Assembly (NCBI GenBank): GCA_039588495.1
Contig: JBDGZR010000007.1
Span: 2,301-66,300 of the forward strand
Direction of reading: 5' to 3'
Origin: Gemmatimonadota bacterium
GTDB lineage: Bacteria; Gemmatimonadota; Gemmatimonadetes; Palauibacterales; Palauibacteraceae
DNA length: 64,000 bases
Shown here: positions 3,784 to 47,621 of the stretch, in pieces
How positions within the stretch are numbered: position 1 is the first letter of the stretch
Layout of the letters: the number at the start of each line of letters is the position of its first letter
Position numbers and translations under genes: made by a program
The notes under the pieces: generated by a model
Told to the model about the DNA's origin: nothing
What the model saw: only the letters and a program-made list of their open reading frames with translations
The model's database searches: none

Positions 3784-3814
3784 CTATGCCGCTGGCGATG
3801 ACCGTCGAACAGAC

Positions 3815-4486
3815 CTAGGCGGTCGGGATGCCCGTCAGATACAAGAACGTCATTCCGTAGTGGGCGAGGCTTCCCGCGACGACGAAGAGGTGGAAGGCCT
3901 CGTGGTAGGAGAACACCCGGTGCCAGAGGCGCGGCTTCACGGCCAGGAAGAGCGAGCCGGTCGTGTAGAGAAGGCCGCCGATGGCAAGCAGAAGGATCGC
4001 CCCGTCGGGCAGAGCCCGGGCGAGCGGTATGACGAGGAACAAGCTCAACCAACCCTGAAAAACCTGCAGGGTGATCGAGAACCAATTGCCCAGGCGAGGG
4101 AAGAAGGCCTTCTGCGCGATCCCGATCGCCGTGATCCCCCACGCGATCGCCAGCGTCGCGACCTTCCACTTCCCCTCCAGGACGATCAGGGCGACGGGCG
4201 TATAGGTACCGGCCACCAGCACGAATATCATCGCGTGGTCGAGCCTCTGCATCCGATGCTTCCACACCTGTTGCCACGGAACCGAGTGGTAGAGGGTACT
4301 CACCGTGTAGAGGAAGATCAGGCTGAGCGCGAAGATGAGGAGGGCGACCTGGCGTGACGTGTCGGGGTCGGCGCGGAGCCACAGGGCCACGGCTCCGGCC
4401 GCGAACAAAACCGCGGCGGCACCATGCAGGATGCCCCGAACGGGGTTTTGCATCCTCCCTAGCGTCAATCGTTCCGTATGATCCAC
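3815..4486 (-). CDS. hemolysin-III / PAQR family channel protein
   Basis: 223-aa ORF with seven predicted TM helices and motifs typical of HlyIII/YqfA, including the EAFHLFVVAGSLAHY C-terminal His motif. Confidence 0.75.
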   Translation of the reverse strand: MDHTERLTLGRMQNPVRGILHGAAAVLFAAGAVALWLRADPDTSRQVALLIFALSLIFLYTVSTLYHSVPWQQVWKHRMQRLDHAMIFVLVAGTYTPVALIVLEGKWKVATLAIAWGITAIGIAQKAFFPRLGNWFSITLQVFQGWLSLFLVIPLARALPDGAILLLAIGGLLYTTGSLFLAVKPRLWHRVFSYHEAFHLFVVAGSLAHYGMTFLYLTGIPTA

Positions 4487-4631
4487 CCATGTCCTCCTTT
4501 AGCGGCGCTTCTGCGCTCGACTAGCGACGCTCCTACGCTCGACGGGGCCAACTGTTTCACCCGCCGGTCCGTCCCGCTGCCTCAAGGACCGGGCCAGACC
4601 CTATTCCACCCAGCCCTGCAGGGTCAGAGGC

Positions 4632-5747
4632 TCAGAAGAAGTACCGCAGACGGAGGTTGAAGGTGATGCTATCCACGTTGTCCTCCGACTGCGTCAGATT
4701 AACCCGGCCCCACAGCGTCTCCACGCCGACGCTGAACTCCTGCCGGCCCGTGTAGAACAGCCCGAGATTGAAGCGCGTGGCGCTCTCGGCAATGTCGGCG
4801 CCTCGGCTGCCGAATAGCTGCGCGTCGATGCCCAGCAAGAAGCCGATCGGCACCGGTGTCACCTCGAGTAGATCGATGTCCGCCACCGCCCCCAGGTTCA
4901 GGATCGTCGTGCCCAGGTCGGCTTCCGGATCGAACTGATCGCCGACGCCGAACTCCGCCCGGCCACGGAGGCCGAACCACTCCAGCGGGCTCCAGGCCCC
5001 ACGGCCTCCGAGCGTGATCGCGTTGCTCCGGCCGCTTACCAGCAGGTCTTCTTCCGTATCCAGTATGCAGTCGGCGACCTCCTCCTCGGCGACCCGCTTC
5101 GCGAACCCGAACGGATCGATCCCTATGATCTTGTTGCTCGAGAAGTCGGCCACGGCTGATAGGAGGAAGCTCTCGGTATGGAACACACGCCCCGTGATTC
5201 CGGCCGCGAACGAGTAGGTGGCGCTCAAGCCCTCGGCGATCAGCGTCTCCGCGTTGGTGCCCGTTCGCACGGCACCACCAAAGCCGATTCTGAGCGCCAG
5301 GAAGTCCACGATCCTCTGCTGATACTCGAAGCCCAGCACCGCGAATGCGATGTCGCCCTGGAGAACCGCGACGGTGTCCGCTTCGGTTAGCACCGGAATG
5401 TTGGCATCCAGCAGGAGGCCGAACCCAGTATTGCTACGGAGGAAGGTCGTAATGAAAGGGTCGGGCACGGTTGAGGTCGGGATGAAGCGGTGGCCCTGCA
5501 GGACCGGCAACCTCCGGTTCTGCACGATCTCCTGGTCCTCTGCACCATCGCTATCCTCACCCGTGCTCTCCGACGAGTCGGCCGGCGCCGTCGAACCGGA
5601 CCTGCTGGCCTTCCGGCTTCCCGTAGCGTCGGCCTGCCTTTCCTCGGCTCCGGGCTGAGACGCCTGAGCGGGTAGCGAGGGTGCTGTGACGGCCAGGAAC
5701 GACGCGGCCAGAACAAGACCGGCCAGCAGTCTGCAAACGACGAACAT
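4632..5747 (-). CDS. outer-membrane beta-barrel protein, family unknown
   Basis: Start set at MFVVCRLLAGLVLAASFLAVTAPSLPAQA, a signal peptide preceded by a GGAGGA RBS. The ORF-track ORF extends to 6047, which I treat as artefactual. The alternating amphipathic pattern and the C-terminal ...NLRLRYFF (terminal Phe) are typical of OM barrels. Confidence 0.6.
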   Translation of the reverse strand: MFVVCRLLAGLVLAASFLAVTAPSLPAQASQPGAEERQADATGSRKASRSGSTAPADSSESTGEDSDGAEDQEIVQNRRLPVLQGHRFIPTSTVPDPFITTFLRSNTGFGLLLDANIPVLTEADTVAVLQGDIAFAVLGFEYQQRIVDFLALRIGFGGAVRTGTNAETLIAEGLSATYSFAAGITGRVFHTESFLLSAVADFSSNKIIGIDPFGFAKRVAEEEVADCILDTEEDLLVSGRSNAITLGGRGAWSPLEWFGLRGRAEFGVGDQFDPEADLGTTILNLGAVADIDLLEVTPVPIGFLLGIDAQLFGSRGADIAESATRFNLGLFYTGRQEFSVGVETLWGRVNLTQSEDNVDSITFNLRLRYFF

Positions 5748-5937
5748 CGGAATCCTCCATGAAGCGAGCGAGAGTTGGCAGCCACAATAGTCCATGTTCA
5801 CTAGAGGTCGCACTACCCTTATGAGAAAGGACTCGCTCTGGGCGGCCAGCACGTCCCCGGCCCGGCCGGACGTGACAAGAGAGGGCCTCGGCATCCATTT
5901 TCCCGGAGAACGAGACCGGCGCCGAAAGGGTGGGCAG

Positions 5938-8616
5938 ATGCCGCAGCTGACGTTCCTGTTGAACGGCCGAGAGAGGGTGGCCGAGTACGAGGAGGGCATG
6001 ACCTTCCTCGAGGTGCTGCGCGATGTGTGCGGCATCACGTCTCCCAAGGACGGGTGCGCGCCCCAGGGCTACTGCGGCTGCTGCGCCATCCTTCTCGACG
6101 GTCGCGCGGTTCTCTCGTGTCTTCGAAAGCCCGAGTCCGTCGCCGGGAAGTCGGTCACCACACTCGAAGGCATCCCCGAGGAACAACGCCGGCTGGTCGC
6201 TGAGGCCTTCGTTCGTGAGGGCGGGCTGCAGTGCGGCTACTGCACGCCCGGGCTGGCAATTCGAACCTGCTCCCTCCTGGACCACCAGGGCACCGATGAC
6301 CGGGAGGCGGTGAGCCGGGCGATCTCGGGCCACCTCTGCCGCTGCACCGGCTTCCAGCGGATCGTCGACGCCATCCGGACGGCCGGCGAAGCCTGGCAGA
6401 ACGGGGGCGAGCTGGCCGATGGAACTCCCAGGCAGCCCTTCTTCTTCGGAGAGAAGTACGGTATCTCCCGAGCCTCGCCTCACGCCCAGAACGGCGTCGG
6501 TGGGAGTCTGGCGCGCTTCCGAGGCGAGGACCATACGCTGGGCGAGAAGCCATACGTCGCCGACATGGTGCGCACCGACATGCTTCATGGGGCGGTGTCT
6601 CTCAGCCGATACCCCAGGGCTCGAGTCGTCCGGATCGACGCCTCATCGGCCCTGACGCTGCCGGGTGTCGAGCGGGTGGTCACGGCCGAAGACGTTCCGG
6701 GCGAGCGCCATGTGGGTCTGATCCGATCCGACTGGCCCGTCTTCGTGGCGCAGGGTGAGGTCACCCGTTGCGTCGGGGATGTCCTCGCACTCGTCCTCGC
6801 CGATACGCCGATTCGGGCGCGCCAGGCCGCCGAAGCCCTCGAGGCCGCCGTCGAGTACGAGGTGCTGACGCCCGTCTCCGATCCGTTCTCCGCCCTGGCC
6901 GACGACGCTCCTGCCGTCCACGAGGGCGGCAACCTCCTGGAGGTGTGCGCCTTCTCGAGAGGTGACGTTGACGCCGCCCTGGCCGGGTCAGCCCACGTCG
7001 TCGAGCAGAGGTTCACCACGCAGAGAATCGAGCACGCTTTTCTGGAGCCGGAGGCCTGTCTGGCCGAACCGTTAGACGGGGGCCGACTCAAGGTGCACAC
7101 GCAGGGTCAGGGCGTGCACGACGACCAGGCCCAGATCGCCGCGGTGCTGGGTGTCGAGGCCGACGCGGTCGAGGTCGAGCTTGTCGCAAACGGCGGCGCC
7201 TTCGGAGGCAAGGAAGACCTGTCCATCCAGGCGCAGACGGCGATCGCCGCTCAGCTGACCGGCCGTCCGGTGCGGACCGTGCTCACGCGGGACGGGTCGA
7301 TCCGGATGCACCCGAAGCGGCACCCGATCTCGCTCGCGTATACGGTCGGGGCCGACTCGGAGGGGCGACTCACGGCCGTCAGGGCGAGGATCGTCGGAGA
7401 CACGGGGGCTTACGCCTCGGTGGGGATGAAGGTGCTCGAGCGCGCGGCCGGTCACTCCTGCGGCCCGTACCGGGTGCCGAATGTCGAGGTCGAGGCAAAG
7501 ACCGTTTACACGAACAATCCGCCCTGTGGCGCGATGCGAGGTTTCGGCGCCAACCAGGCCTCCTTCGCGATCGAGGGTGTCATGGACCTATTGGCGGAGC
7601 GGGTCGGCGTGGACGGCTACGACATCCGGGAACGCAACATTCTCGAGCCCGGAGACCCCTTCGCGACCGGCCAGCTGATGACCGAGAGCTGCGGCATCCG
7701 CCAGACCCTGGAGGCCGTTCGAGACATCTACAAGGACGCCCGATACGCCGGGATCGGCTGCGGGATCAAGAACACGGGGATCGGCAACGGGATGGACGAC
7801 AGCGGGCGCCTGCTGCTCCGCGTCCTGGAGGGCGAGCGGATCGAGATCCTGACCGGATACACGGAGATGGGCCAGGGTCTCTATACCATCCTCCGCCAGG
7901 TCGTCGCCGAAGAGACGGGACTCGATCCGGATCTAATGACGGCACGAACGACCAGCGACCCCCGGGTGCTGTGCGGGATGACGACGGCCTCGCGGGCGAC
8001 CGCGCTCCTCACGGCCGCCGGACAGATCGCCGCCCGCGAGCTCGCCGACGACCTGGAGCGGGCGCCGCTGGACGAGTTCGTGGGGAAGGAATACCACGGC
8101 GAGTACGTGTGCGACTTCACCACCAAGCCGGGCAACGAGATGGAGCATCCGGTCACGCACATGACCTTCAGCTACGCCACCCAGGTCGTCATGCTGGACG
8201 AAGATGGGCGGCTGGAGCGGGTGGTCGCCGCCCATGACGTCGGAAGGGCGATCAACCCCCTGCTTTGCGCGAGCCAGATCGAGGGCTCCGTGCACATGGG
8301 ACTCGGCTATGCGCTCTCCGAGGACCTTCCGTGCACTGATGGCCGGCCCGATTCGACCCTCCTCCGCGACCTGGGCATTCTGAAGGCGAAGGACACGCCG
8401 CCGATCGACGTCATCCTGATCGAGGTCCCCGATGAGGTGGGAGGCTATGGCTCCAAGGGTGTGGGCGAGATCGGCCTCGTGCCGACCGCGGGCGCGGTGG
8501 CCGGCGCGCTGCACGCTTTCGACGGGAAGCGCCGCTTCGATCTACCGATGAGCGACGCCCCGGCCGCGGCGCCCTCCGTTCCGAAGTCACGGCTGAAAGC
8601 CGGGGCGGCCGGCTGA
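5938..8616 (+). CDS. molybdenum hydroxylase (xanthine dehydrogenase/aldehyde oxidase family): N-terminal 2x[2Fe-2S] ferredoxin-like domains fused to the molybdopterin-binding catalytic domain, with no FAD domain (XdhD / D. gigas MOP-like architecture)
   Basis: Start at MPQLTFLLNGRER, ATG at 5938 behind a GGGTGGG RBS. Fe-S motifs CAPQGYCGCC and GLQCGYCTPG...HLCRCTGFQRIV are followed by about 700 aa of a/b-hammerhead plus MoCo-binding domain (AMRGFGANQ, GQGL). Total length about 892 aa. Confidence 0.85.
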   Translation: MPQLTFLLNGRERVAEYEEGMTFLEVLRDVCGITSPKDGCAPQGYCGCCAILLDGRAVLSCLRKPESVAGKSVTTLEGIPEEQRRLVAEAFVREGGLQCGYCTPGLAIRTCSLLDHQGTDDREAVSRAISGHLCRCTGFQRIVDAIRTAGEAWQNGGELADGTPRQPFFFGEKYGISRASPHAQNGVGGSLARFRGEDHTLGEKPYVADMVRTDMLHGAVSLSRYPRARVVRIDASSALTLPGVERVVTAEDVPGERHVGLIRSDWPVFVAQGEVTRCVGDVLALVLADTPIRARQAAEALEAAVEYEVLTPVSDPFSALADDAPAVHEGGNLLEVCAFSRGDVDAALAGSAHVVEQRFTTQRIEHAFLEPEACLAEPLDGGRLKVHTQGQGVHDDQAQIAAVLGVEADAVEVELVANGGAFGGKEDLSIQAQTAIAAQLTGRPVRTVLTRDGSIRMHPKRHPISLAYTVGADSEGRLTAVRARIVGDTGAYASVGMKVLERAAGHSCGPYRVPNVEVEAKTVYTNNPPCGAMRGFGANQASFAIEGVMDLLAERVGVDGYDIRERNILEPGDPFATGQLMTESCGIRQTLEAVRDIYKDARYAGIGCGIKNTGIGNGMDDSGRLLLRVLEGERIEILTGYTEMGQGLYTILRQVVAEETGLDPDLMTARTTSDPRVLCGMTTASRATALLTAAGQIAARELADDLERAPLDEFVGKEYHGEYVCDFTTKPGNEMEHPVTHMTFSYATQVVMLDEDGRLERVVAAHDVGRAINPLLCASQIEGSVHMGLGYALSEDLPCTDGRPDSTLLRDLGILKAKDTPPIDVILIEVPDEVGGYGSKGVGEIGLVPTAGAVAGALHAFDGKRRFDLPMSDAPAAAPSVPKSRLKAGAAG

Positions 8617-10613
8617 TGGAGCTCCAGCCGATCCCCTTCCCCGACCTCGTGCGCCGGATGCGGCGCGAGGTCGAGACGGCCGGCTCGATATTCGATCTCC
8701 CGGTCCGCAAGTGGTGGATTCCGAGCGAGGAGATGGACTTCTCGGCGCTTCATTTCGGACACCGCGCCTCCACGCCGGTCGGACCGGCAGCCGGGCCGCA
8801 CACGCAGCTCGCCCAGAACATCGTGCTCTCCTGGCTGGCGGGAGGCCGGATCATCGAGATCAAGACCGTCCAGGTCAACGACCGGCTCGAGATCCCGCGT
8901 CCCTGCATTCACGTCCCCAACGTCGGCTATAACGTCGAGTGGTCGCAGGAGCTGCTTGTCGAGGAGTCGCTCAACGAGTACGCCAAGGCCGCGTACCTGA
9001 TAGAAATCCTCAAGGCCACGCGCGCGTTCGGCCGGCTCCCCTCCGATCACGGGCTCGACACGGTCTTCGACATCAGCGTCGGCTACGACCTGGAAGGCAT
9101 TCGGAGCGAGAAGGTGACCGGCTTCATCGAGGGAATGAAGGATCCGGCGCGCAGCTTCGACCTGCTGCGAGAAGAGTTACGCGGAGATCTGGCGGAGTTC
9201 TCGGAGATCGACCTGCCCGAACAGATCTCCGACACCGTCACGCTGTCCACCTTCCACGGGTGCCCGGCCGACCAGATCGAGTCCATCTGCCGTTACCTCC
9301 TCGAGGAGGTCGGCCTTCACACGATCATCAAGCTGAACCCCACGCTCCTCGGCTTCGAAGCGGTCCGCGAGATCCTCTTCGACCGGCTCGGCTACACGCA
9401 CCTCAAGCTGCGGCGCGAAGCCTTCGACGTGGACCTCCAGTACGACGACGGCCTCGAGATCCTGAGGCGGCTGCGCTCGGTGGCCGAGAGGCAAGGATCG
9501 GTCATCGGCGCGAAGTTCACGAACACGCTCGTCGTCGAGAACGAGCCGGAGTTCTTCCCGACCCAGACCGACCCCTACATGTACGTATCCGGTCCGCCGC
9601 TGCACGTGATCTCGATGAACCTCATGCAGCGGTTTCGGGAGGACCTGGGCTTCGAGTTCCCTGTCTCCTTCTCGGCCGGCGTGGACGTCAAGAACTTCCC
9701 TGTCGCCGTGGCCTGCGGAATGGTCCCGGTGACGACTTGCACGGACCTCCTCCGACAGGGTGGCTTCGGCCGCCTCCCGGGCTACCTGAAGGCGCTGGGC
9801 AGAGAGATGCAGAAGCACGACGTCACGTCGCGCGAGGCGTACGTGCTCACGGCGGGAGGAAGGGCGGCGGAGGCGGTCGAGGAGGCTTTGACGACATTTC
9901 GGGGCGCAGCGACCGGGAGCGAGCCGTTGTGCGATCCCGAGCAGCGGCGCCGAATCACCGAAATGGCACCGAACGATCTCCCGGCCGCGCTCCGCGCCGT
10001 CGGGGAGGCCGCCGATCTCGACGGGGAGGCGATCCTGCTGCACGCGACCCGCGTCGCCGGCCGGTTGACCGGCCGCGGTATCGTCCCCTCCCTGGTCGAG
10101 GAACCGCGATATCACGCATCGGCCAACTCCAAGGCGCCTCGTCAGATCGACAGCACACTCGCGCTGTACGATTGCATTAACTGCGACCTCTGCATCCAGG
10201 CCTGTCCCAACGACGCGATCTTCTCGTACGAGGCCGAGCCGATCGAGGTGAACGGCTTCGCGATCCGCGAGTCGCACCAGCTCGCCGTGTTCGAAGGAGC
10301 GTGCAACGAGTGCTCCAACTGCGAGATCTACTGTCCCGAGTCGGGCGCCCCGTTCGTCGAGAAGGAGATCGTCTTCCAGGCGCGCGCCGCCTTCGATGAA
10401 TCGAAGCTGGATGGTTTCTGCCGGGCGGGCGACAGGCTCTACGCGCGCCTCGGTGGTCGTGAGTACGAGCTGGAGATCGGCAAGGACGAAGAGATCGCCT
10501 TCGAGAGCCTGGACGCCGAGCTCGACATCACGCGCATGGCGCGGATGCGAACGGTGTGGAACTCGATCTACCGCTCCGATACCCCCAACCCGGTGAACCC
10601 GTCACCCTCGTGA
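8616..10613 (+). CDS. Fe-S flavoprotein: DHOD/DPD-like TIM-barrel domain plus C-terminal 2x[4Fe-4S] ferredoxin domain (YgfK N-terminal-like / PreA-like)
   Basis: The ATG overlaps the upstream stop (TGATG). ASTPVGPAAGPHTQLAQNIVLSWLAGGRIIEIKTVQV resembles the G-x-AAG...IEIGTVT flavin-barrel motif of the DHOD/DPD family. The C-terminus carries CINCDLCIQACP and CNECSNCEIYCP. Confidence 0.6.
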   Translation: MELQPIPFPDLVRRMRREVETAGSIFDLPVRKWWIPSEEMDFSALHFGHRASTPVGPAAGPHTQLAQNIVLSWLAGGRIIEIKTVQVNDRLEIPRPCIHVPNVGYNVEWSQELLVEESLNEYAKAAYLIEILKATRAFGRLPSDHGLDTVFDISVGYDLEGIRSEKVTGFIEGMKDPARSFDLLREELRGDLAEFSEIDLPEQISDTVTLSTFHGCPADQIESICRYLLEEVGLHTIIKLNPTLLGFEAVREILFDRLGYTHLKLRREAFDVDLQYDDGLEILRRLRSVAERQGSVIGAKFTNTLVVENEPEFFPTQTDPYMYVSGPPLHVISMNLMQRFREDLGFEFPVSFSAGVDVKNFPVAVACGMVPVTTCTDLLRQGGFGRLPGYLKALGREMQKHDVTSREAYVLTAGGRAAEAVEEALTTFRGAATGSEPLCDPEQRRRITEMAPNDLPAALRAVGEAADLDGEAILLHATRVAGRLTGRGIVPSLVEEPRYHASANSKAPRQIDSTLALYDCINCDLCIQACPNDAIFSYEAEPIEVNGFAIRESHQLAVFEGACNECSNCEIYCPESGAPFVEKEIVFQARAAFDESKLDGFCRAGDRLYARLGGREYELEIGKDEEIAFESLDAELDITRMARMRTVWNSIYRSDTPNPVNPSPS

Positions 10614-12013
10614 GAAGGCGATTCATCAACCTCAGGGTGCCCGCGAGGCACGACGAGACGAGACCGGCGTCGGTACTGGTCATCGACGGCCTGATCGCAG
10701 AGGTCGCGGCCCCGGACTCGGCGCCGGTGGAGGCGGAGGAGGAGACCCTCGATCTCGGTGGCATGCTCGTGCTTCCCGGCGTGATCGACGGTCACGTGCA
10801 CTTCGACGACCCGGGGTTCACGCATCGGGAGAGCTTCGAGACCGGAACGCGAGCGGCCGCCGCGGGCGGCGTTACCTGCATCGTCGACATGCCCTGCACC
10901 TCCCTCCCCCCGGTCACCTCGGGCGACAACCTCCAGACCAAGCTGGCGGTGATCGAGGCGAAGGCGCACGTCGATTTCATGCTCTGGGGTGGAGTGTCCG
11001 CCAACGCGATGGCCGAGCCGACATGGAGGGCGAACCTGGCGGAGATCGTCCAGGCGGGCGTCGCCTCGATCAAGGTCTACATGCTCTCCGGCATGGAGAC
11101 CTTCCGCGATCTCTCGCGGCCTCAGCTCGCCGAAGCCCTCGAGGAGATCGCCAGGCACCAGGTACCAGTCGGCGTGCATGCGGAAGATCGGGAGATGGTG
11201 CACGAGCTCACGAGGCGCATCCGAGCCGAGGGACGGGACGAGCCTCTGGACTACGCAGCGTCACGCCCTCCGGCCGCCGAGATATCCGCCGTGGCGACCA
11301 TGCGCGACCTCTGCCGGGAGACCGGCGCGCGGGTGCACGTCGTCCACCTGGCCACCGGAGCCGCACTCGACATCGTGACGGCAGCCCGCGACGAAGGCCT
11401 GCCGATGTCGGCGGAGACCTGCCCGCACTTCCTGGAGTTCACCGAGGATGATCTCCGGCGTCAGGGAGCCCTCCTCAAGACGGCACCGGTCGTGAAGGGT
11501 GCGGCGGACCGGGAACGCCTTTGGGAGGGGCTCGCATCGGGTGAGCTGGAGTACGTGGCGACCGATCACGCTGCCGGCCAGTGGCCGGAGGAGAAGCAGA
11601 CCGGCTCGATCTGGACCGACTACGGCGGCGTGCCGGGCGTGGAGCTTTCGCTGCCGTACCTCTACTCTGAGGGCGTCCGCCGGGGGCGGATCACCCTCGA
11701 GCGCCTCACGGAGCTCACGGCATCCGCACCCGCCAGCTTCTTCGGGATCGAAAGGCGGAAAGGGAGGCTCGAGCCCGGCTACGACGCGGACTTCGCGGTC
11801 TTCGCGGACGAGGAGACCTGGAGCGTGAGAGCGGAGAGCCTCCACAATCTCAACCCGTACACCCCGCTCGCAGGGTACGAACTGACCGGCCGGGTACGGG
11901 AGACGTACGTGCGTGGCCAGCCGGTCTTCAGACGTCAAGATGATGGCGGCGAGTGGTTCGGGGATCCCGGCCTCGGGCGACACGTGAGACGCGAATCGAG
12001 GGTCTCGACGTGA
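10610..12013 (+). CDS. cyclic amidohydrolase (hydantoinase/dihydropyrimidinase/allantoinase family, HyuA-like)
   Basis: The GTG start at 10610 overlaps the upstream stop (GTGA). The N-terminus runs ...VLVIDGLIAEV...LDLGGMLVLPGVIDGHVHFDDPGF (D-x-H-x-H metal site). Length about 467 aa. Confidence 0.8.
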   Translation: MRRRFINLRVPARHDETRPASVLVIDGLIAEVAAPDSAPVEAEEETLDLGGMLVLPGVIDGHVHFDDPGFTHRESFETGTRAAAAGGVTCIVDMPCTSLPPVTSGDNLQTKLAVIEAKAHVDFMLWGGVSANAMAEPTWRANLAEIVQAGVASIKVYMLSGMETFRDLSRPQLAEALEEIARHQVPVGVHAEDREMVHELTRRIRAEGRDEPLDYAASRPPAAEISAVATMRDLCRETGARVHVVHLATGAALDIVTAARDEGLPMSAETCPHFLEFTEDDLRRQGALLKTAPVVKGAADRERLWEGLASGELEYVATDHAAGQWPEEKQTGSIWTDYGGVPGVELSLPYLYSEGVRRGRITLERLTELTASAPASFFGIERRKGRLEPGYDADFAVFADEETWSVRAESLHNLNPYTPLAGYELTGRVRETYVRGQPVFRRQDDGGEWFGDPGLGRHVRRESRVST

Positions 12014-13386
12014 GCGAGCTCGAAACCTGGATCCTGGGTAACGGCACGCTGGTGACGGGCGGCTCGCCATCGGGCGTCATCCCGAACGGCGCCGTCGCCT
12101 GGACGGGAGAGCGGATAGCCGCCGCCGGCGAGGAGCCGGCGATCAGGGCGCGCTTCCCGGACGCGCACTACCTGGACGGGCACGGCGGCATCATCATGCC
12201 GGGCCTGGTCAACATCCACCATCACTTCTATTCCGCCCTCGCGAGAGGCCTGGATCCGGGAACGCCCATGCGGAACTTCCCGGAGGTGCTGGATCGTCTC
12301 TGGTGGCGGCTCGACCGCGCGCTGGACGCCGAGGACGTTGGCATCTCGGCCCTCCTGTCGTTGGCGGACTGCGTGCGGCACGGCTGCACGACCGTGTTCG
12401 ACCACCATGCCTCTCCGTCGTGCATCGACGGAAGCCTGGACGCGATCGCCGATGCCGTCGACCAGGCCGGGATCTCGGCGCTCCTCTGCTACGAGATCAC
12501 CGATCGCAACGGGCCCGAAGGCGCCGAGGCGGGGATCGAAGAGAACCTGCGTTTCCAGGCCGAACGGGAGGATGACCCGCGGATCCGCGGCGTGATCGGC
12601 CTCCATGCCAGTTTCACCCTCCACGATGAGACGCTGGCCCAGGTAGCGGAGCGGCGACCGACCGGTGCCGGCTGCCACATCCATGTGGCGGAGGATCCGG
12701 TCGATGTACGCGCGTCGATCGAGTCGTTCGGCGCCGGCCCGGTCGAGCGCCTCGAGCGCTTCGGCCTGCTGGACGAGCGCGCTCTGCTCGCGCACGCGAT
12801 CCACCTCGAGCTGGCGGATTACGAGCGGGTCGCCCGAGCCGGGGCGATCCTCATCCACAACCCGGAGTCGAACGCCAACAACGGCGTCGGCCGCCTGAAC
12901 GTGCCGCGCACCGCCGCCCTGGGCTGCGCGATCGGCCTCGGCACGGATGGCATGTCCTCCTCGATGCTGAGAGCTCTGCGCTTCGCGTTCCTGACTCATC
13001 GAGGCGCAACCGGCGATCCGTCCTCGGGATTCGAGGCGCTGCCGGAGCTGCTGGCCAACAACGCCGCCGTGGCGCGCCGCTTCTTCGCGGAGCCGCTACT
13101 CGGCCAGCTCGTGGAGGGGGCGCCGGCCGACGTCATCGTCGTCGATTCCCCGCCTCCGACGCCGATTTCAGGCGAGAACGCCTTCGGGCACCTCGTCTAC
13201 GGCACCAGCGAGTCTCCCGTGCGGCACACCGTGGCTCGTGGCCGGATCTTGCTGGAGGGTTTCCGACACACGACCCTGGATGCCGAGGCGTTGGCCGCCC
13301 GGGCCCGGGAGCGGGTGCCACCCCTGTGGAAACGGTTTCACGCCCTAGATTGGAACACTCCATATCTAGGCCCGCCAGAGAGATAG
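12010..13386 (+). CDS. SsnA-like aminohydrolase/chlorohydrolase (amidohydrolase superfamily)
   Basis: The GTG start at 12010 overlaps the upstream stop (GTGA). PGLVNIHHHFYSAL (HxH motif), ...HIHVAED... and an overall length near 458 aa fit SsnA/ATZ-TRZ-type deaminases. Confidence 0.75.
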   Translation: MSELETWILGNGTLVTGGSPSGVIPNGAVAWTGERIAAAGEEPAIRARFPDAHYLDGHGGIIMPGLVNIHHHFYSALARGLDPGTPMRNFPEVLDRLWWRLDRALDAEDVGISALLSLADCVRHGCTTVFDHHASPSCIDGSLDAIADAVDQAGISALLCYEITDRNGPEGAEAGIEENLRFQAEREDDPRIRGVIGLHASFTLHDETLAQVAERRPTGAGCHIHVAEDPVDVRASIESFGAGPVERLERFGLLDERALLAHAIHLELADYERVARAGAILIHNPESNANNGVGRLNVPRTAALGCAIGLGTDGMSSSMLRALRFAFLTHRGATGDPSSGFEALPELLANNAAVARRFFAEPLLGQLVEGAPADVIVVDSPPPTPISGENAFGHLVYGTSESPVRHTVARGRILLEGFRHTTLDAEALAARARERVPPLWKRFHALDWNTPYLGPPER

Positions 13387-13396
13387 GATAGATCAC

Positions 13397-14854
13397 TTGA
13401 GTCAGACTCTAGATGCCGCCGCGCGGCAGAGAGCGGTCGAACGGTGCCGGGAACGACGAATCCTCATCCCGACGTTCGCCCAGATGAGGGATCCTGCGGG
13501 ACTGGATCCGTCTCTGGTGGCCGAGCTGGCGGAGATCGACATGCAGGCCGTGCATCCGCTCAATCTCTTCCGAATCACCTGGCACAACGACCCTGATTCC
13601 GGAACCTTCGGAGACGTCAACTATCTCGAGCTTCCATCCGAGCTCACCGGGGTCCCCGCCCGGATCGTCGGCCTCGTCGGGGAGCACTTCCCGACCGGCG
13701 CGCACAAGGTGGGAGCTGCTTTCGGCTGCCTGGTCCCCAGGCTGGTGAGCGGCGCGTTCGACCCGACGGCCAATCGTGCCGTGTGGCCATCCACCGGCAA
13801 CTACTGCCGAGGCGGCGCGTTCGACAGCGCGCTGCTGGGGTGCCGAGCGGTGGCGATCCTCCCGGAGGAGATGAGCCGGGAGCGCTTCGACTGGTTGGAG
13901 GGGATGGGAGCCGAGATCATCCGGACGCCGGGGAGCGAAAGCAACGTCAAGGAGGTCTTCGACGCCTGCTGGGAGCTGCGCCACTCCGATCCGGACGCGG
14001 TCGTCTTCAACCAGTTCGACGAATTCGGCAACTACCTCTGGCACCGCGGCGTCACCGCTCCGGCCGCCGAGTCCGTGTTCCGGTCCCTGGCCGGCGAGAG
14101 CGACCGCTTCGCCGCCTGGGTTTCGGCGACGGGCTCGGCGGGCACGCTGGGCGCAGGTGACTGGCTCAAGAAGCAATTCCCCGGCTGCCGGATCACGGCC
14201 GCCGAGGCACTCCAGTGCCCCACCATGCTGATGGCCGGCTTCGGAGCGCACCGCATCGAGGGGATCGGGGACAAGCACGTGCCCTGGATCCTCAACGTGC
14301 GGAACACCGACCTGGTGTCGGCGATCGATGACGAGGCCACCATGAGCCTCACGCGGCTGTTCAACGAACCGGCCGGAAGGGCGGTTCTTCTCGACTACGG
14401 GGTTCCGGAAGACGTGATCGCGCAGCTGCCGCTCCTCGGCTTTTCCGGCATCTGCAACGCGCTCGCCGCGATCAAGACGGCCCGCTACTTCGAGCTCGAT
14501 CGTCACGACATCCTCCTCACGTCCTTCACCGACTCGGTGGAGCTGTACCGCACCCGGCTCGACGAGATGAGAACCGAGCGCGGAGAGTACACGGAGCGCC
14601 AGGCCGCGGTCGACCTCGAGCACTACCTGCTCGGAGCCACCACCGACCACCTTCGGGAGCTGCGCTACACGGATCGGAAGGCGATTCACAATCTCAAGTA
14701 CTTCACCTGGGTCGAGCAGCAGGGCAAGACGGTCCAGGAGCTGAACGCCCTCTGGGATCCGGGCTTCTGGGACCGGTTGGCAGACTGGCTCCCCGAGTGG
14801 GACGCAGCGATCGAAGCCTTTAACGAGGAGACCGGCGTAACGTATGGCGCATAG
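13397..14854 (+). CDS. fold-type-II PLP-dependent enzyme of the tryptophan-synthase-beta-like lyase/thiolase clade
   Basis: 485 aa. FPTGAHKVGAAFG resembles the TrpB HTGAHKxN PLP-lysine motif. A Gly-rich loop (GSAGTLGAG) is present, and about 100 aa at the N-terminus go beyond TrpB. Confidence 0.6.
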   Translation: MSQTLDAAARQRAVERCRERRILIPTFAQMRDPAGLDPSLVAELAEIDMQAVHPLNLFRITWHNDPDSGTFGDVNYLELPSELTGVPARIVGLVGEHFPTGAHKVGAAFGCLVPRLVSGAFDPTANRAVWPSTGNYCRGGAFDSALLGCRAVAILPEEMSRERFDWLEGMGAEIIRTPGSESNVKEVFDACWELRHSDPDAVVFNQFDEFGNYLWHRGVTAPAAESVFRSLAGESDRFAAWVSATGSAGTLGAGDWLKKQFPGCRITAAEALQCPTMLMAGFGAHRIEGIGDKHVPWILNVRNTDLVSAIDDEATMSLTRLFNEPAGRAVLLDYGVPEDVIAQLPLLGFSGICNALAAIKTARYFELDRHDILLTSFTDSVELYRTRLDEMRTERGEYTERQAAVDLEHYLLGATTDHLRELRYTDRKAIHNLKYFTWVEQQGKTVQELNALWDPGFWDRLADWLPEWDAAIEAFNEETGVTYGA

Positions 14855-16061
14855 CGAAGCACCGGCGGCACTGGAAGCGGCGGGCCGCTTCGAGGTCGAC
14901 ATCGTCCGCTTCCTGCGTGAGATGATCGCCATTCCGGCCGAAAGCCGACGCGAGGGCGAGCGCTGCGAGCGGGTGCGACAGGAGTACGAGCAGCTCGGAT
15001 TCGACGAGGTCGGATTCGACCGACTCGGCAACGTGGTCGCGCGGATCGGTGACGGCCCGTTCACGATTCTCATGGACGGACACATCGACTGCGTCGGCGT
15101 CGGGGACCGGGACGCCTGGGAGCACGACCCGTTCGCCGGCAAGCTCGAGGACGGCAAGGTCTGGGGTCGAGGAGCCGTCGACGAGCTGCCGGCGATCGCG
15201 TGCATGGCCTACGGGGCTGCTATCGCCCGAAGCCGCGGCCTGCCGCCTAACGTGACGCTCTATCTCACCGCTTCGGTGATGGAGGAGGACTGCGACGGCT
15301 ACTGCCTTCTCCATCTCATCGAGCAGGAAGGGATCCGCCCCGATGTCGTCGTCATCGGTGAACCGACCGATCTCGGCGTCTACCGCGGCCAGCGTGGACG
15401 CGTGGAAGCGACGATCTCGGCCAAGGGGCGATCCTCACACGCCGCTCATCCGGAGGAAGGGGTCAACGCCCTTTACAAGCTCGCGCCGATCATCTCCGAC
15501 ATCGAGGCCTTGAACGACCGCCTGCCCTCCGACGATTTCCTCGGCAAGGGCACGGTCGTGGTCTCGAATATCGAGTGCACCACCGTCTCCCTGAACGCGG
15601 TACCCGACAGCGCGCGGATCACCATTGATCGGCGGCTAACCGCCGGAGAGTCGGCCGATGCAGCGCTCGACGAGCTGCGCTCACTTCCCCATATGGGCGA
15701 TGCGGAGGTCGAGCTCCTGCAGTATGACGAGCTGAGCTGGCGTGGAGAGCGGGCCCGCCAGGAGAAGTTCTTCCCGAGCTGGGTGCTGCCGGAGGAGCAT
15801 CCGCTCGTGCGCGGCGTGGCCGGTGCCGTGGAGGCGGTGCTCGGCTCACCGCCAGCCGTCTCCCGCTGGTCCTTCTCCACGAACGGCGTAGCGACGATGG
15901 GGCGGCACGGCATCCCGACGGTGGGCTTCGCGCCCGGCCTGGAGGAGCTCTCCCACACGACGGGCGAATGGGTGGCGGTCGAGGACTTGGTGCGGGCAAC
16001 CGCCGTGTACAGCCTGATCCCGGCTTTCCTTTCCTCGCTCGAGAAGGAGCTCGCCCCGTGA
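14844..16061 (+). CDS. M20 family metallo-hydrolase (YgeY-like; N-carbamoyl-amino-acid amidohydrolase/ArgE/DapE type)
   Basis: 405 aa. MDGHIDCVGVGDRDAWEHDPF plus GRGAVDE match M20 metal-site motifs. The start overlaps the upstream gene by 11 nt. Confidence 0.8.
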   Translation: MAHSEAPAALEAAGRFEVDIVRFLREMIAIPAESRREGERCERVRQEYEQLGFDEVGFDRLGNVVARIGDGPFTILMDGHIDCVGVGDRDAWEHDPFAGKLEDGKVWGRGAVDELPAIACMAYGAAIARSRGLPPNVTLYLTASVMEEDCDGYCLLHLIEQEGIRPDVVVIGEPTDLGVYRGQRGRVEATISAKGRSSHAAHPEEGVNALYKLAPIISDIEALNDRLPSDDFLGKGTVVVSNIECTTVSLNAVPDSARITIDRRLTAGESADAALDELRSLPHMGDAEVELLQYDELSWRGERARQEKFFPSWVLPEEHPLVRGVAGAVEAVLGSPPAVSRWSFSTNGVATMGRHGIPTVGFAPGLEELSHTTGEWVAVEDLVRATAVYSLIPAFLSSLEKELAP

Positions 16062-17050
16062 GGACATCCGTCGTCATCCCTCCTGGCCTCAAGGGGCGCG
16101 ACTTCATCTCGACGCAGGACTGGACGGTTGAGGAGCTCGAGACGCTGTTCATACTCGCCGAGCAACTCAAGCGGGCCAGGGAGGCCGGAGAGCGGAGCCC
16201 GCTTCTCCCCGACAAGACGCTGTACATGATCTTCTTCGATGCCTCGACGCGAACGCGCAACTCCTTTGAGACGGGAATCACCCAGCTGGGCGGACACGGC
16301 ATCTATCTCTCGCCGGATCGGATGCAGATCAGCCACGGAGAGAACGCCAAGGACACGGCCAACATCCTGTCTCGGTACGGAGAGGCGATCGCGATCCGGC
16401 ACTGCACCTTCGGCGAGGGCAATGGCTACGTCCGGGAGGTCGCGGCGCACGCCGATGTCCCGGTCCTCAGCATGCAGGATGACATCTACCATCCCTGTCA
16501 GATCCTGGCCGACTACATGACGGTTCGAGAACGTTTCGCGGACACGCGAGGTCTGAAGATCGGGGTGGCCTGGACGAGTGCTCCCAACTACGTAAGGCCG
16601 ATCTCCGTGCCGCAGAGCCTCGTTCTGATGATGCCGCGCTTCGGTCTGGACGTGACCCTAGCCTACCCGCCCGAGTTCCGCCTCATGCCGGAGATCGAGG
16701 AGCAGGCGAAGGCCAACGCGGAAGCCGGCGGCGGCCGCTTCCGGATCACGCACACGTTCGAGGAGGCGTTCGAGGACGCGGATGTCGTGGTCCCGAAATC
16801 ATGGGGACCTCTGGTTCACACCTCCGATACGGCGGAGGGACGTCGTCTGATCGAAGCCTACCCGGATTGGCGGTGCGATGCCGAGCGCATCGCCCTCGGG
16901 AAGGAGCATCTGATATACATGCACCCGCTTCCGGCGGACCGCGGCCGAGAGGTGACGGACGAGGTGATCGACGGGCCGCACTCGGCCGTGTACGACGAAG
17001 CCGAGAACCGGCTCCATGTGCAGAAGGCCCTGATGGCTTTGGTCATGTGA
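16058..17050 (+). CDS. carbamoyltransferase of the OTCase/ATCase superfamily, YgeW-like
   Basis: The GTG start at 16058 overlaps the upstream stop (GTGA). FFDASTRTRNSFETG matches the STRTR carbamoyl-phosphate motif, and HPLPADRG is the C-terminal HxLP motif. Confidence 0.8.
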   Translation: MRTSVVIPPGLKGRDFISTQDWTVEELETLFILAEQLKRAREAGERSPLLPDKTLYMIFFDASTRTRNSFETGITQLGGHGIYLSPDRMQISHGENAKDTANILSRYGEAIAIRHCTFGEGNGYVREVAAHADVPVLSMQDDIYHPCQILADYMTVRERFADTRGLKIGVAWTSAPNYVRPISVPQSLVLMMPRFGLDVTLAYPPEFRLMPEIEEQAKANAEAGGGRFRITHTFEEAFEDADVVVPKSWGPLVHTSDTAEGRRLIEAYPDWRCDAERIALGKEHLIYMHPLPADRGREVTDEVIDGPHSAVYDEAENRLHVQKALMALVM

Positions 17051-17096
17051 ACGGCGCTTATCGCACCGTCCGGAGTCGTGCCGGGAGCGGCGACCT

Positions 17097-18335
17097 GTGA
17101 GCGGCTTCGGGCTCCGGTGCACCGAGTGCGGGCGGGAGTACACGGAGGACCCGGCGCTCCTGGTCTGCGAGGCGTGCGCCGCGCTGCAGAGGCCGGGTGG
17201 TCCGACACGTGGGGTACTCGAGATCGAGCTGGAGGTGCTCCCTGAGGAGTGGCCCGAAGCCAGGCCCTCCGACACCGACTTCCTCGAGGCCTTCCTCCCG
17301 TTCTCGGATCCATCCGCCGTGGCTCCGCTGGATGTCGGCGGGACGCCGCTCCTGCCTGCCCCCCGCCTGCGGGAGGCTCTGGATCTGCCCAGGCTCTGGG
17401 TCAAGGATGATACGCGCAATCCGAGCGGGTCGACGAAGGACCGGGCCTCTCTGCTCGTCGTCGCCAAGGCCAGCGAGTACGGCTTCGATACCGTTGCCGC
17501 GGCCTCCACCGGCAACGCTGCCGCCGCGCTGGCGGCCGTCGGAGCCGCGGCCGGCATCCGGGCGGTCGTATTCGTTCCCGAGTCGGCGCCGGAGGCGAAG
17601 CTCGTGCAGATCCTGTGCTACGGGGCGGACGTGGTTCGTGTGCAGGGAAGCTACGACGACGCCTTCGACCTCTGCCTCGCCTCCTGCGACGCCTTCGGCT
17701 GGTACAACCGAAACACGGCTCTCAACCCGTTCACGATCGAGGGCAAGAAGACCGCCGCGCTGGAGATAGCCGCCGCCATGTCACCGCAGCCACCCGACGT
17801 GGTGCTCGTGCCGACCGGCGATGGGGTGATACTGGCCGGCGTGGCGAAGGGGTTCCAGGACCTTGTGCGCGCCGGCCTCCTCCCCCGAATGCCGCGCCTG
17901 ATCGCCGTTCAGCCGGAGGGATCGGCCGGGATCGTGACGGCCTTCCGCGACGGAACCGAGAGCGTGACCCCCGTGCCGAACGCAGCCAGCGTGGCCGACA
18001 GCTTGACGGTGGGCACGCCACGCAACGCGATTCTCTGTCTGAGGCGCATCAGAGAGTCGAAGGGTGGCGCGGTCGCCGTCTCCGATGAGGAGATCCTCGA
18101 AGCCATCCCGTACCTGGCTTCCCACACGGGCGTGTTCGCAGAGCCCGCCGGCGCGGCGGCTCTGGCCGGGCTTCACCGGGCGCTGGAGGAAAGCCAGGTA
18201 GCGTCCGACGAGCGGATCGTGCTCTTGGTTACGGGTTCCGGTCTGAAGGACGTTCCCGCCGCCAGCCAGACGGTCGAACGGCCGGAGCCGATAGCCCCGG
18301 ACCTGGGAGCCGTGGCGAAGCTCTTCGACCTCTAA
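17097..18335 (+). CDS. fold-type-II PLP-dependent enzyme (cysteine synthase/threonine synthase-like) with an N-terminal Cys4 zinc ribbon
   Basis: GTG start. CTECG...CEAC at the N-terminus. NPSGSTKDRAS is a PALP-family PLP-Lys motif, and GSGLKD lies near the C-terminus. Confidence 0.65.
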   Translation: MSGFGLRCTECGREYTEDPALLVCEACAALQRPGGPTRGVLEIELEVLPEEWPEARPSDTDFLEAFLPFSDPSAVAPLDVGGTPLLPAPRLREALDLPRLWVKDDTRNPSGSTKDRASLLVVAKASEYGFDTVAAASTGNAAAALAAVGAAAGIRAVVFVPESAPEAKLVQILCYGADVVRVQGSYDDAFDLCLASCDAFGWYNRNTALNPFTIEGKKTAALEIAAAMSPQPPDVVLVPTGDGVILAGVAKGFQDLVRAGLLPRMPRLIAVQPEGSAGIVTAFRDGTESVTPVPNAASVADSLTVGTPRNAILCLRRIRESKGGAVAVSDEEILEAIPYLASHTGVFAEPAGAAALAGLHRALEESQVASDERIVLLVTGSGLKDVPAASQTVERPEPIAPDLGAVAKLFDL

Positions 18336-26274: not shown

Positions 26275-27432
26275 CTAGTCTCCCCGTCCCGGGGTGGTTG
26301 TCGGCTCCACGAACGGCGGCGGCGTCTCCGTCGTGTGCGGCGGAAGCACGGGGTAGCGCACGTTCGGCTGCTCTCCGTTCAGGCTCTCCAGGAAGGCGAC
26401 GATGGCATCAACGTCTCCAGGGGTGAGCTCGGCGCCCAGTTGCACCGACCCCATCACGTCGACCGCCTCGCCCAGATCCCATACTCCACCCGAGTGAAAG
26501 TAGGGAGCGGTCAGAGCCACGTTGCGCAGCGACGGCGCCTTGAACACATACTCATCGGCGACCGTGCGGGTGACCTCGAACCTGCCCTTGTCGTTTGGCG
26601 GCAAGACATCGGCCCCCGGCTTCCGCGCGACACCGAACGGAAAATAATCCGATCCGCCGACGTTCATTCCGGCATGGCAGGCGGCGCAGCCCTTCTCCAT
26701 GAACAGGCCAAGGCCAGCAAGCTCCGCTCCCGTCAACGCCTCCTCATCTCCCTCGAGAAAACGGTCGAACCGGCAGCCGGGGGTGGTCAGGGTCGCCTCG
26801 AACGCCTCGATGGCCCTCGCCATGTTCTCGAAGGTCACCGGCTCCGCATCATCCGGGAACGCCTTCTCGAATCTCTCGACGTACTCCGGAATGCTCCGCA
26901 GCGTCGCCACTACACGATCCGGCGTGCTGTTCATCTCGACAGCCGCCTGCACGGGGCCCATCGCCTGCTCCATGAGATCTTCCGCGCGGCCGTCCCAGAA
27001 CTGGGCGATGTTGAACACTGCGTTCAGGACGGTCGGCGCGTTTCTCGGACCCTTCTGCCACCCGTGCCCGATGGACGTCTCCATCAGATCGACTCCGCCG
27101 AGGCCGAGGTTGTGGCAGGTGTTGCAGCTGATCAGCCAGCTGGACGAGAGCCGGGGCTCGAAGAAGAGCATCTTCCCGAGCTCCACCTTTTCGGGGGTCA
27201 GGGGGTTCGTCTCCAAAACCGGCAGGGTCGAGGAGATCGGCTGGAAGACGGTCGCCGCGCTCGCGACCAGGGATTCGGCTCCAGGCGGGGCGGTCTGTGC
27301 CATCCCGGTCGTCTCGGTCATCGCGGCCCCGGCGGTTTCATTCCCCTGCTGGGGGCCCGCCTGGCCGCAGGCGCCGAGCACGAGGGCAGCTGCGAGGGTT
27401 GTCGATGCAGGTGAGATCGCGTGATATCGCAT
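26275..27432 (-). CDS. di-haem cytochrome c peroxidase (CcpA/MauG family) lipoprotein
   Basis: Lipobox LVLGAC. Two CxxCH sites (CNTCH and CAACH). Family-typical PSLRNVALTAPYFHSGGVWDL. Its stop lies 4 nt upstream of the tryptophanase-fusion start. Confidence 0.85.
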   Translation of the reverse strand: MRYHAISPASTTLAAALVLGACGQAGPQQGNETAGAAMTETTGMAQTAPPGAESLVASAATVFQPISSTLPVLETNPLTPEKVELGKMLFFEPRLSSSWLISCNTCHNLGLGGVDLMETSIGHGWQKGPRNAPTVLNAVFNIAQFWDGRAEDLMEQAMGPVQAAVEMNSTPDRVVATLRSIPEYVERFEKAFPDDAEPVTFENMARAIEAFEATLTTPGCRFDRFLEGDEEALTGAELAGLGLFMEKGCAACHAGMNVGGSDYFPFGVARKPGADVLPPNDKGRFEVTRTVADEYVFKAPSLRNVALTAPYFHSGGVWDLGEAVDVMGSVQLGAELTPGDVDAIVAFLESLNGEQPNVRYPVLPPHTTETPPPFVEPTTTPGRGD

Positions 27433-47591: not shown

Positions 47592-47621
47592 CGATGCTCC
47601 TATTGGGGACTCACAGGTGGC

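Follow-up and report, generated by a model that had tools for sequence, protein, structure and literature searches.

The oxygen-free degradation of urate was worked out only in 2025, and on account of its relevance to gout the work on it has dealt with bacteria of the gut. In Escherichia coli the genes of this pathway are arranged as ygeW-ygeX-ygeY-hyuA-yqeA ... ygfK-ssnA-ygfM-xdhD (Li et al. 2025, PMC12507026). The conversion of urate to 2,8-dioxopurine is carried out by XdhD-YgfM in E. coli and by the fused enzyme XdhAC in Clostridium sporogenes; dihydro-2,8-dioxopurine is then formed by YgfK, or by UacX in Clostridioides difficile, after which SsnA produces ureidomethyl-hydantoin and HyuA 2,3-diureidopropionate, and the final steps are those of YgeW (or the hydrolase UacY), leading to a mono-ureido compound and carbamoyl phosphate, of YgeY, leading to 2,3-diaminopropionate, and of YgeX, leading to pyruvate and ammonia (PMC12507026; 10.1101/2025.04.24.650524). 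A carbamate kinase gains ATP from the pathway's carbamoyl phosphate, a dependence on selenium has been shown in C. sporogenes (10.1101/2025.04.24.650524), and a commentary lists as open questions in which order the ureido groups are cleaved, which donor supplies XdhAC with electrons, and what stereochemistry is followed. Here we describe a set of eight genes (viz. g1 to g8; positions 5938-18335, all on the + strand) in a stretch of 64,000 nucleotides from a Gemmatimonadota bacterium (assembly GCA_039588495.1, contig JBDGZR010000007.1, positions 2,301 to 66,300), the whole of which is referred to as the window. As judged from their sequences, these genes quite probably constitute one operon for the reductive degradation of urate (the 2,8-dioxopurine or 'yanthine' route) in a version found in Gemmatimonadota, and the locus is a new variant of the pathway published in 2025.

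Comparison with the characterised pathways

When compared with the region ygeV-uacT of E. coli K-12, the operon shares with the E. coli set an SsnA, a YgeY, the N- and C-terminal parts of YgfK, a cyclic amidohydrolase, a carbamoyltransferase and an iron-sulfur (Fe-S)/molybdenum (Mo) hydroxylase, and the same order of reactions is plausible. However, the Mo enzyme is of another lineage, YgfM is absent, and YgfK is without its module for flavin adenine dinucleotide (FAD) and NAD(P)H. Further, HyuA is replaced by the allantoinase-like g3 and YgeW by a relative of 330 amino acids (aa); YgeX is absent, and there are two pyridoxal 5'-phosphate (PLP) enzymes, one like threonine synthase (ThrC) and the other with the fold of cysteine synthase (CysK). 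Carbamate kinase, YqeB/C, MocA, a sigma-54 regulator and a transporter are also lacking from the operon, and all of the genes are present in one compact unit, whereas those of E. coli are distributed over several. With C. sporogenes (Liu et al. 2025, 10.1101/2025.04.24.650524) the locus has in common a fused Fe-S/Mo hydroxylase without an FAD subunit, the C. sporogenes enzyme making no use of NAD(P)H, and the absence of carbamate kinase from the cluster (in C. sporogenes it is encoded elsewhere in the genome). The Mo domains of C. sporogenes XdhAC (DOPDH) are at 307-839, near the 848-position TIGR03311 model that is passed by g1. The C. sporogenes pathway includes xdhAC and ygfK (DOPOR). As published, and as rebuilt in this organism and in E. 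coli, it has YgeX for its last enzyme, unlike the one considered here. With C. difficile, whose UacX is a PydA-like enzyme carrying flavin mononucleotide (FMN) only (PMC12507026), the locus shares reductases without an FAD/NAD(P)H module, which implies an external low-potential donor. In contrast to UacX, g2 is derived from YgfK and not from the PF01180 DHO_dh/PydA lineage (it has no PF01180 match), and the carbamoyltransferase is kept here, whereas C. difficile has the hydrolase UacY in its place. YgeX of E. coli is, like g5 and g8, a member of the fold-type II PLP superfamily and stands at the same end of the pathway, but it is not orthologous to either of them, and g5 is an extra member in comparison to both the E. 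coli and the Clostridium clusters. The original prediction, that these genes are a variant of the ygeW-ygeY-hyuA-ssnA-ygfK-xdhD set in a high-GC organism that is not from the gut, is borne out: the cut-offs for TIGR03311, SsnA and YgeY are passed and g2 matches the two ends of YgfK.

The assignment to the pathway is based on homology and synteny. Gene order, family memberships, domain losses and the conservation of the arrangement in different phyla are observed here; the substrates and products are predictions, taken from homologous enzymes of E. coli and Clostridium that were characterised in 2025, and the electron donor and the way in which g5 and g8 share their work are predictions as well. 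In this scheme g1, an FAD-less enzyme of the XdhAC/TIGR03311 type, is proposed to be a urate to 2,8-dioxopurine dehydroxylase (DOPDH) acting at C6, and g2 a 2,8-dioxopurine reductase, which would dearomatise this compound by means of its FMN barrel and 4Fe-4S clusters and would need an external electron donor. The reduced purine would then be opened hydrolytically in its pyrimidine ring by g4 (SsnA), giving ureidomethyl-hydantoin, and g3 is proposed to take the role of HyuA and to open the hydantoin (or 5-ureido-dihydrouracil), giving 2,3-diureidopropionate. One ureido group of the latter would be phosphorolysed by g7 with formation of carbamoyl phosphate, and the other would be hydrolysed by g6 (YgeY), leaving 2,3-diaminopropionate. 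Lastly, g8 and g5 would take over from the missing YgeX and turn the C3 amino acid into pyruvate and ammonia. As both of the reductases are without a pyridine-nucleotide module, their electrons should come from an external low-potential carrier, e.g. ferredoxin, as has been proposed for the Clostridium enzymes.

Organisation and conservation of the operon

The GC content of the 64-kb window is uniformly ~66%, and 7 of the 8 open reading frames (ORFs) of the operon pass a filter for GC at third codon positions (GC3 >0.78) that was used as support for real genes, g7 being just under it. The eight genes are co-directional, as originally described, and the overlaps reported for them are all confirmed from the sequence, viz. 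a TGATG of 1 nt at the g1/g2 junction, GTGA overlaps of 4 nt at g2/g3, g3/g4 and g6/g7, and an overlap of 11 nt between g5 and g6. In addition, g4 and g5 are separated by 10 nt, with g5 starting at a TTG that has AGGA upstream of it, and g7 and g8 by 46 nt. The exact products of g1, g2, g6 and g8 (892, 665, 405 and 412 aa, respectively) are found in public gene calls, the GTGA start of g3 is backed by a Joint Genome Institute (JGI) call of 467 aa, and the start of g5 by full-length N-terminal conservation. The operon is flanked upstream by a divergent gene without a Pfam match and downstream by a convergent proC. Short start/stop overlaps are common in bacterial operons and such packing is not unusual in itself; the tight packing, with translational coupling all along the operon, supports co-transcription of the eight genes.

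The order and spacing of the eight genes are repeated in three sister loci (L004, L005 and L007), and due to this the arrangement is to be regarded as conserved and not as a result of chance. The first of these is in a metagenome-assembled genome (MAG) of Gemmatimonadales and shows identical order and 83-90% amino-acid identity; the second, on the Gemmatimonadota chromosome CP070670.1 (bin741), is also among the closest loci. The third (CAXMRU010000295.1) has the same 8 genes at 65-82% amino-acid identity in a MAG labelled Akkermansiaceae, but as its GC content is 66.9%, it is probably mis-binned, or otherwise indicates horizontal transfer. Two other loci, L002 and L009, contain near-identical operons with a carbamate kinase after g8, and a further one, L006, ends within the carbamoyltransferase gene. 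Overall, 162 related loci from >10 phyla were compared (82 seeded with g5 and 80 with g8), and in many phyla g5 and g8 recur amid genes for the Mo hydroxylase, YgfK, SsnA, a HyuA-like protein, the carbamoyltransferase, carbamate kinase and M20 enzymes. The host of the locus described here is a soil- or sediment-type Gemmatimonadota bacterium.

The intergenic region preceding g1 (5770-5937, +), which is the leader/promoter region of the operon, contains short blocks that are conserved in L004 and L005, viz. CACAATAGTCC at ~130 nt upstream of g1 and CCATTTTTCCGGAGAACG...CGCCGAAAGGGTGGG before the start codon, and the blocks may be a promoter or operator. A riboswitch or other leader RNA was considered for this region and rejected, as no Rfam family was matched at gathering thresholds, only a single 17-bit chance match was seen at E <= 1, and the fold z-score was 0.15 in comparison to shuffled sequences. 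A scan for sigma-70 promoters and intrinsic terminators, which in this phylum is uninformative and speaks neither for nor against internal promoters, found no terminators across the operon and one antisense promoter-like site that was not above shuffles.

The molybdenum hydroxylase and the short YgfK

The first gene, g1 (5938-8616, +), encodes a fused hydroxylase of 892 aa with two [2Fe-2S] clusters and a molybdopterin part, of the selenium-dependent xanthine dehydrogenase (XDH)/XdhAC type. It passes the model TIGR03311 (selenium-dependent xanthine dehydrogenase) with 876.8 bits against a cut-off of 830.45, over model positions 2-845 of 848, whereas for the XdhD model TIGR03313 its score of 224 is far under the cut-off of 1101.9. 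Its Pfam domains are Fer2_2, Ald_Xan_dh_C, MoCoBD_1 and MoCoBD_2, its identity to the E. coli (Ec) proteins XdhD and XdhA is 26% and 27%, respectively, and no FAD subunit accompanies it. In length and domain order g1 is like C. sporogenes XdhAC, and likewise like EF_2570 of Enterococcus faecalis, which is the single fused Mo enzyme of the cluster in that organism. Its earlier description as XdhD-like is correct in regard to a 2Fe-2S/Mo hydroxylase, but the enzyme is of the clostridial/enterococcal fused TIGR03311 type and not an orthologue of XdhD; nor does it fall in with CO dehydrogenase or with isoquinoline oxidoreductase, either of which would have spoken against the assignment. The motifs GGKE, RGFG and GVGE of the xanthine oxidoreductase (XOR) type are kept in g1, whereas EcXdhD has Q in the first two of them (Q-for-E and Q-for-R).

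The second gene, g2 (8616-10613, +), encodes a 'short YgfK' of 665 aa consisting of an FMN barrel like those of dihydropyrimidine and dihydroorotate dehydrogenases and of a C-terminal ferredoxin part with two [4Fe-4S] clusters. In tblastn comparisons YgfK residues 5-405 are matched at 41% identity and residues 905-1015 at 35%, whereas residues 456-951, which form the GltD-like FAD/NAD(P)H module, are not present in g2; the original likening to YgfK holds for the two termini and fails for this entire module. It is due to this missing module that g2 scores below the cut-off of the YgfK model TIGR03315 (428 vs 835 bits), of whose 1012 positions only 4-397 are matched. A 4Fe-4S dicluster (Pfam Fer4_7) is found at 520-575, and the best structural matches of an AlphaFold2 (AF2) model (predicted local distance difference test score, pLDDT, 72) are pig dihydropyrimidine dehydrogenase and dihydroorotate dehydrogenases. 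The top 120 database homologues of g2 are all 549-757 aa in length (most of them 660-735), with Fer4 domains only and no Pyr_redox.

The only match in the window to the middle module of YgfK is the GltD-like part (31% identity) of a PorC-GltD-PorD fusion. This fusion (PorC/GltD-like FAD/NAD(P)H/PorD, 818 aa) is encoded together with PorB-like and PorA-like proteins in a 2-oxoacid:ferredoxin oxidoreductase cluster at 45367-50078 on the - strand, which is 30 kb away from the operon, on the opposite strand to it and with no evidence of linkage. By linking pyruvate oxidation to low-potential electrons, the cluster could conceivably be a source of reducing power.

The proposed ring-opening and ureido-cleaving enzymes

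The protein encoded by g3 (10610-12013, +; 467 aa) is a cyclic amidohydrolase, as originally predicted, but instead of the hydantoinase family to which it had been assigned, it scores 397.7 with the model for allantoinase, TIGR03178, whose cut-off of 357.85 it thereby passes, and is under the cut-off for the HyuA-type D-hydantoinase model TIGR02033 (257.5 vs 393). It is from the same superfamily as EcHyuA, with 31% identity. If allantoin is compared with ureidomethyl-hydantoin, then the two differ by one CH2, and an allantoinase homologue would be a chemically reasonable opener of the latter ring. This gene is present in L004, L005, L007 and L105, but missing from the otherwise syntenic L002, L006 and L009. 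In these three loci, which are of the Acidobacteriota type (the L002 operon is at 3753-16008), g2 is followed directly by the gene for SsnA, with no allantoinase-like gene.

The protein encoded by g4 (12010-13386, +), an aminohydrolase of 458 aa, passes the SsnA model NF005540 (455.6 against a cut-off of 444), is under that of TIGR03314 (434.9 vs 455.5), and is 37% identical to EcSsnA over its full length. That encoded by g6 (14844-16061, +), an M20 amidohydrolase of 405 aa from the YgeY family, passes both YgeY models (NF009555, 461 vs 321; TIGR03526, 450 vs 321.5) and is 46% identical to EcYgeY.

The carbamoyltransferase g7 (16058-17050, +; 330 aa) is a short relative of YgeW that is under all curated cut-offs, both those for ornithine transcarbamylase (OTC; NF001986, 269 vs 306; TIGR00658, 250 vs 281) and those for YgeW (208 vs 453 and 198 vs 500). 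In BLAST comparisons it is closer to EcYgeW (36% identity, 202 bits) than to EcArgI (30%, 133 bits), and its identity to YgeW is 35-36% across the different comparisons. The motifs PKSW and xxPxSVPQ are common to g7 and YgeW, three insertions of YgeW are missing from g7, and in place of the ornithine-binding motif DxWxSMG of OTC there is PKSWG. An ordinary ArgF, which had been named as an outcome that would argue against the prediction, is not indicated by these results. The clade of g7, with members of ~325 aa, is found in several phyla, and the homologues usually adjoin a carbamate kinase.

The two PLP-dependent enzymes

An orthologue of YgeX is not found in the window, the best match being g8, which can be aligned with it over 294 aa at 22% identity (E = 8e-9), and g5 being matched over 44 aa only; this absence was not remarked upon in the original prediction. 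A substitution of YgeX would also be invisible in the published survey, as Li et al. (PMC12507026) used SsnA as the marker and coloured any PF00291 neighbour of it as YgeX.

The last gene of the operon, g8 (17097-18335, +), encodes a ThrC-like protein of 412 aa that carries a Cys4 zinc ribbon in its N-terminal part. It passes the generic thrC model TIGR00260 (193 vs 167) and is just under PRK08197 (294 vs 303), and its nearest solved relatives are the threonine synthases of Thermus thermophilus (1UIM) and Aquifex aeolicus (2ZSJ; 199 bits). However, where the solved ThrCs have STGNT, NPxR and GNAGN, all 29 of the aligned g8 family members have STGNA, NP(F/Y)T (with M in a few) and GDG. The ThrC versions of these motifs are reported, in structure work on the T. 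thermophilus enzyme, to bind the phosphate of the substrate. The zinc ribbon is present in most members of the family and absent from the solved ThrC relatives. A metagenome scan seeded with g8 gave 80 loci, and among the 46 of them that are >=8 kb, SsnA, the Mo hydroxylase and the carbamoyltransferase are found in 18 each, M20 in 17, carbamate kinase in 14, g5 in 19, and another fold-II PLP gene (28-43% identical to g5) in 10. YgeX is present in none of the 80 g8-seeded loci and in only 1 of the 162 related loci, viz. L072, which holds g5 but not g8; in the g5-seeded and g8-seeded scans YgeX and g8 are never found together. Five of these 10 loci were examined, viz. L111 (8897-9934), L107, L117, L125 and L137, and in this other clade of clusters a CysK-like ORF of canonical length (345 aa) is immediately upstream of the g8-type gene, at the place taken elsewhere by the 485-aa g5 type. 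A CysK-family enzyme seems here to have been recruited a second time, and independently.

The other PLP enzyme, g5 (13397-14854, +; 485 aa), had been described as TrpB-like. It is a PLP enzyme, but its fold is that of CysK and cystathionine beta-synthase (CBS), with a helical C-terminal extension that is unique to it. Only the generic PALP family PF00291 was matched in Pfam, and the scores for cysteine synthase are much below the cut-offs (TIGR01139 (cysK), 93 vs 351; TIGR01136, 86 vs 344). An AF2 model (pLDDT 79; predicted template modelling score, pTM, 0.85) is nearest to CysK and CBS at ~25% identity, and the closest solved relatives are likewise cysteine synthases/CBS, e.g. 8SRT and 4L27 (75 bits; Foldseek E = 3e-14). 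In comparison to CysK, g5 has ~80 extra residues at the N-terminus and ~145 at the C-terminus, and a structure search found no known domain in the C-terminal extension, only the CysK/CBS core being matched. The PLP-binding Lys104, the S-T-G-N loop and the G-S-x-G-T (phosphate) loop are invariant in the family, in which identity is 71-90% among the top 120 database clusters. A library of 1.8 billion representatives contains few full-length clusters at the level of 50% identity, and copies of 55-86% identity are present in at least 597 GTDB species, all of them MAGs, from >10 phyla. Judged by its sequence, g5 is a distinct and highly conserved family without named membership. In the 38 g5-seeded loci with >=8 kb on both sides, 29 hold at least one other family of the pathway and 22 at least three.

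Two other roles for g5 were considered. A replacement of YgeY is rejected, as 13 of the 82 loci seeded with g5 contain both, and so do more of those seeded with g8. A role in sulfuration or selenation of the Mo cofactor is not supported, the association of g5 with genes further downstream (HyuA-like, g8 and carbamoyltransferase) being stronger than that with the Mo enzyme. A distant homologue of g5 (43% identity, P0250) is found directly downstream of a MoaA-type gene in L088 (307-2867), a contig of 3.9 kb.

Based on gene context, it is proposed that g8 is a non-orthologous stand-in for YgeX (diaminopropionate ammonia-lyase), and that enzymes of the CysK family have been recruited time and again as a further partner of g8. 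A broader proposal, which we put forward tentatively and with its chances somewhat below even, is that outside of the gut Bacillota and Enterobacteria the pathway ends in a pair of PLP enzymes, one ThrC-derived and without the phosphate-site motifs of ThrC, the other of the CysK family, which replace YgeX; that the CysK type was recruited at least twice (in forms of 485 aa and 345 aa); that the pair carries out novel chemistry on 2,3-diaminopropionate or beta-ureidoalanine; and that both of the reductive steps take place on Fe-S-only enzymes with a low-potential donor. Candidates for the chemistry of the pair are a racemisation followed by stereospecific deamination, or a direct elimination of urea. 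If the proposal is correct, then this chemistry bears on the stereochemistry and on the order of ureido cleavage in the pathway.

Alternative explanations

Several observations weigh against the interpretation of the locus as a urate-degrading operon of the kind outlined above. The xanthine-oxidase-type E/R/E triad is complete in g1, and due to this the enzyme could be a xanthine dehydrogenase instead of, or besides, a urate dehydroxylase. The sister operons L002, L006 and L009 are without g3, and the scheme of ring opening may differ. The locus has no YgeX orthologue, and the roles proposed for g8 and its CysK-family partner are drawn from gene context; further, as L072 has YgeX together with g5, the latter is not simply part of a replacement of YgeX. 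No electron-donor gene is found within the operon, and carbamate kinase, SelD, YqeB/C and MocA are lacking from the window, although a dependence on selenium is ascribed to enzymes of the TIGR03311 family. If the first of these points is given most weight, then the same architecture would serve another entry substrate, with g1 as a selenium-dependent xanthine/hypoxanthine dehydrogenase or as a hydroxylase of another N-heterocycle, and the electrons might pass via Fe-S chains to g2 with no external donor. In EcXdhD, for which the reduction of urate is proven, Q is found at two of the positions where g1 keeps the GGKE, RGFG and GVGE motifs, the name of the TIGR03311 family itself refers to xanthine, a xanthine-permease-type transporter is encoded within the window, g1 and g2 are translationally coupled and the flavin/NAD(P)H module is missing from both, and by arithmetic on the published steps, the conversion of hypoxanthine to dihydro-2,8-dioxopurine would be redox neutral overall. 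However, the fused Fe-S/Mo enzyme XdhAC of C. sporogenes, whose length is near that of the 848-position model, is an experimentally shown urate to 2,8-dioxopurine enzyme. Further, for all common purines the C6 substituent must be removed reductively before SsnA-type chemistry can give a C3 diamino acid, and the operon encodes one Mo enzyme only. A different entry substrate is thus considered unlikely, though it is the alternative with the most in its favour.

The passing of TIGR03178 by g3, along with the presence of an M20 hydrolase and a carbamoyltransferase, could also be read as an anaerobic allantoin-type pathway like that of E. coli allB-allC-OXTCase-allK (allantoinase, M20 allantoate amidohydrolase and a carbamoyltransferase producing carbamoyl phosphate). 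This is highly improbable, as g6 passes the YgeY models (461 vs 321) and not AllC, and as SsnA, the YgfK-type reductase and the Mo hydroxylase are without a role in allantoin degradation, whereas the set of the reductive pathway is consistently present in the related loci. In addition, no ureidoglycine/ureidoglycolate enzymes, uricase, 5-hydroxyisourate (HIU) hydrolase or carbamate kinase were found in the window. There is equally little to commend the view that g5, g7 and g8 serve ordinary biosynthesis (as cysteine synthase, OTC and threonine synthase) and just happen to be located beside a purine-catabolic cluster. Although g8 passes TIGR00260, OTC is the best hidden Markov model for g7, and the JGI annotation of g5 is 'cysteine synthase', the cysK score of g5 is 93 vs 351, g7 is under all OTC cut-offs and without DxWxSMG, and the g8 family has lost three motifs that the solved ThrCs share without exception. 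Further, all three of these genes are interleaved or overlapping with the pathway genes and co-occur with them across phyla. The reductive degradation of urate remains the probable function of the operon.

Significance

Close relatives of parts of the operon are found in Acidobacteriota, Chloroflexota, Elusimicrobiota, Bacteroidota, Verrucomicrobiota, Planctomycetota, Myxococcota and others, and due to this wide distribution reductive purine degradation may be a common route for nitrogen and carbon in soils and sediments. The results also provide a context-based role for two abundant families that are now annotated as 'cysteine synthase' and 'threonine synthase', and g1 and g2 are naturally minimal redox enzymes with which the electron donor could be studied.

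Other genes in the window

The original prediction that the window has no carbamate kinase, YgfM, YqeB/C or SelD proved correct across all 64 kb. For carbamate kinase the best tblastn match had an E of 0.7 (with the L002 kinase as query) and there is no AA_kinase Pfam match; YqeA, YqeB, YqeC, YgfM and MocA gave no match in the 64-kb window; and a SelD-type protein was not found in Pfam/NCBIfam scans of essentially all other ORFs of the window. An NCS2 permease of the xanthine/urate type is encoded at 39590-40981 (-), which passes the pbuX model TIGR03173 (436.8 against a cut-off of 414) and is 37% identical to EcUacT and 33% to XanQ. It may supply the substrate, but it is unlinked to the operon, being 21 kb away and on the opposite strand. 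An ORF of 889 aa at 23601-26270 (-) contains at 478-854 a beta-eliminating lyase of the tryptophanase/tyrosine phenol-lyase type (PF01212, E = 1.6e-91), its N-terminal ~470 aa having no Pfam match. Lastly, a di-haem cytochrome c peroxidase (26275-27453, -) and a GMC oxidoreductase with a partner like gluconate 2-dehydrogenase subunit 3 (30975-33370, +) are also present, and from these two it appears that the host is probably not a strict anaerobe and has an oxygen-exposed lifestyle.

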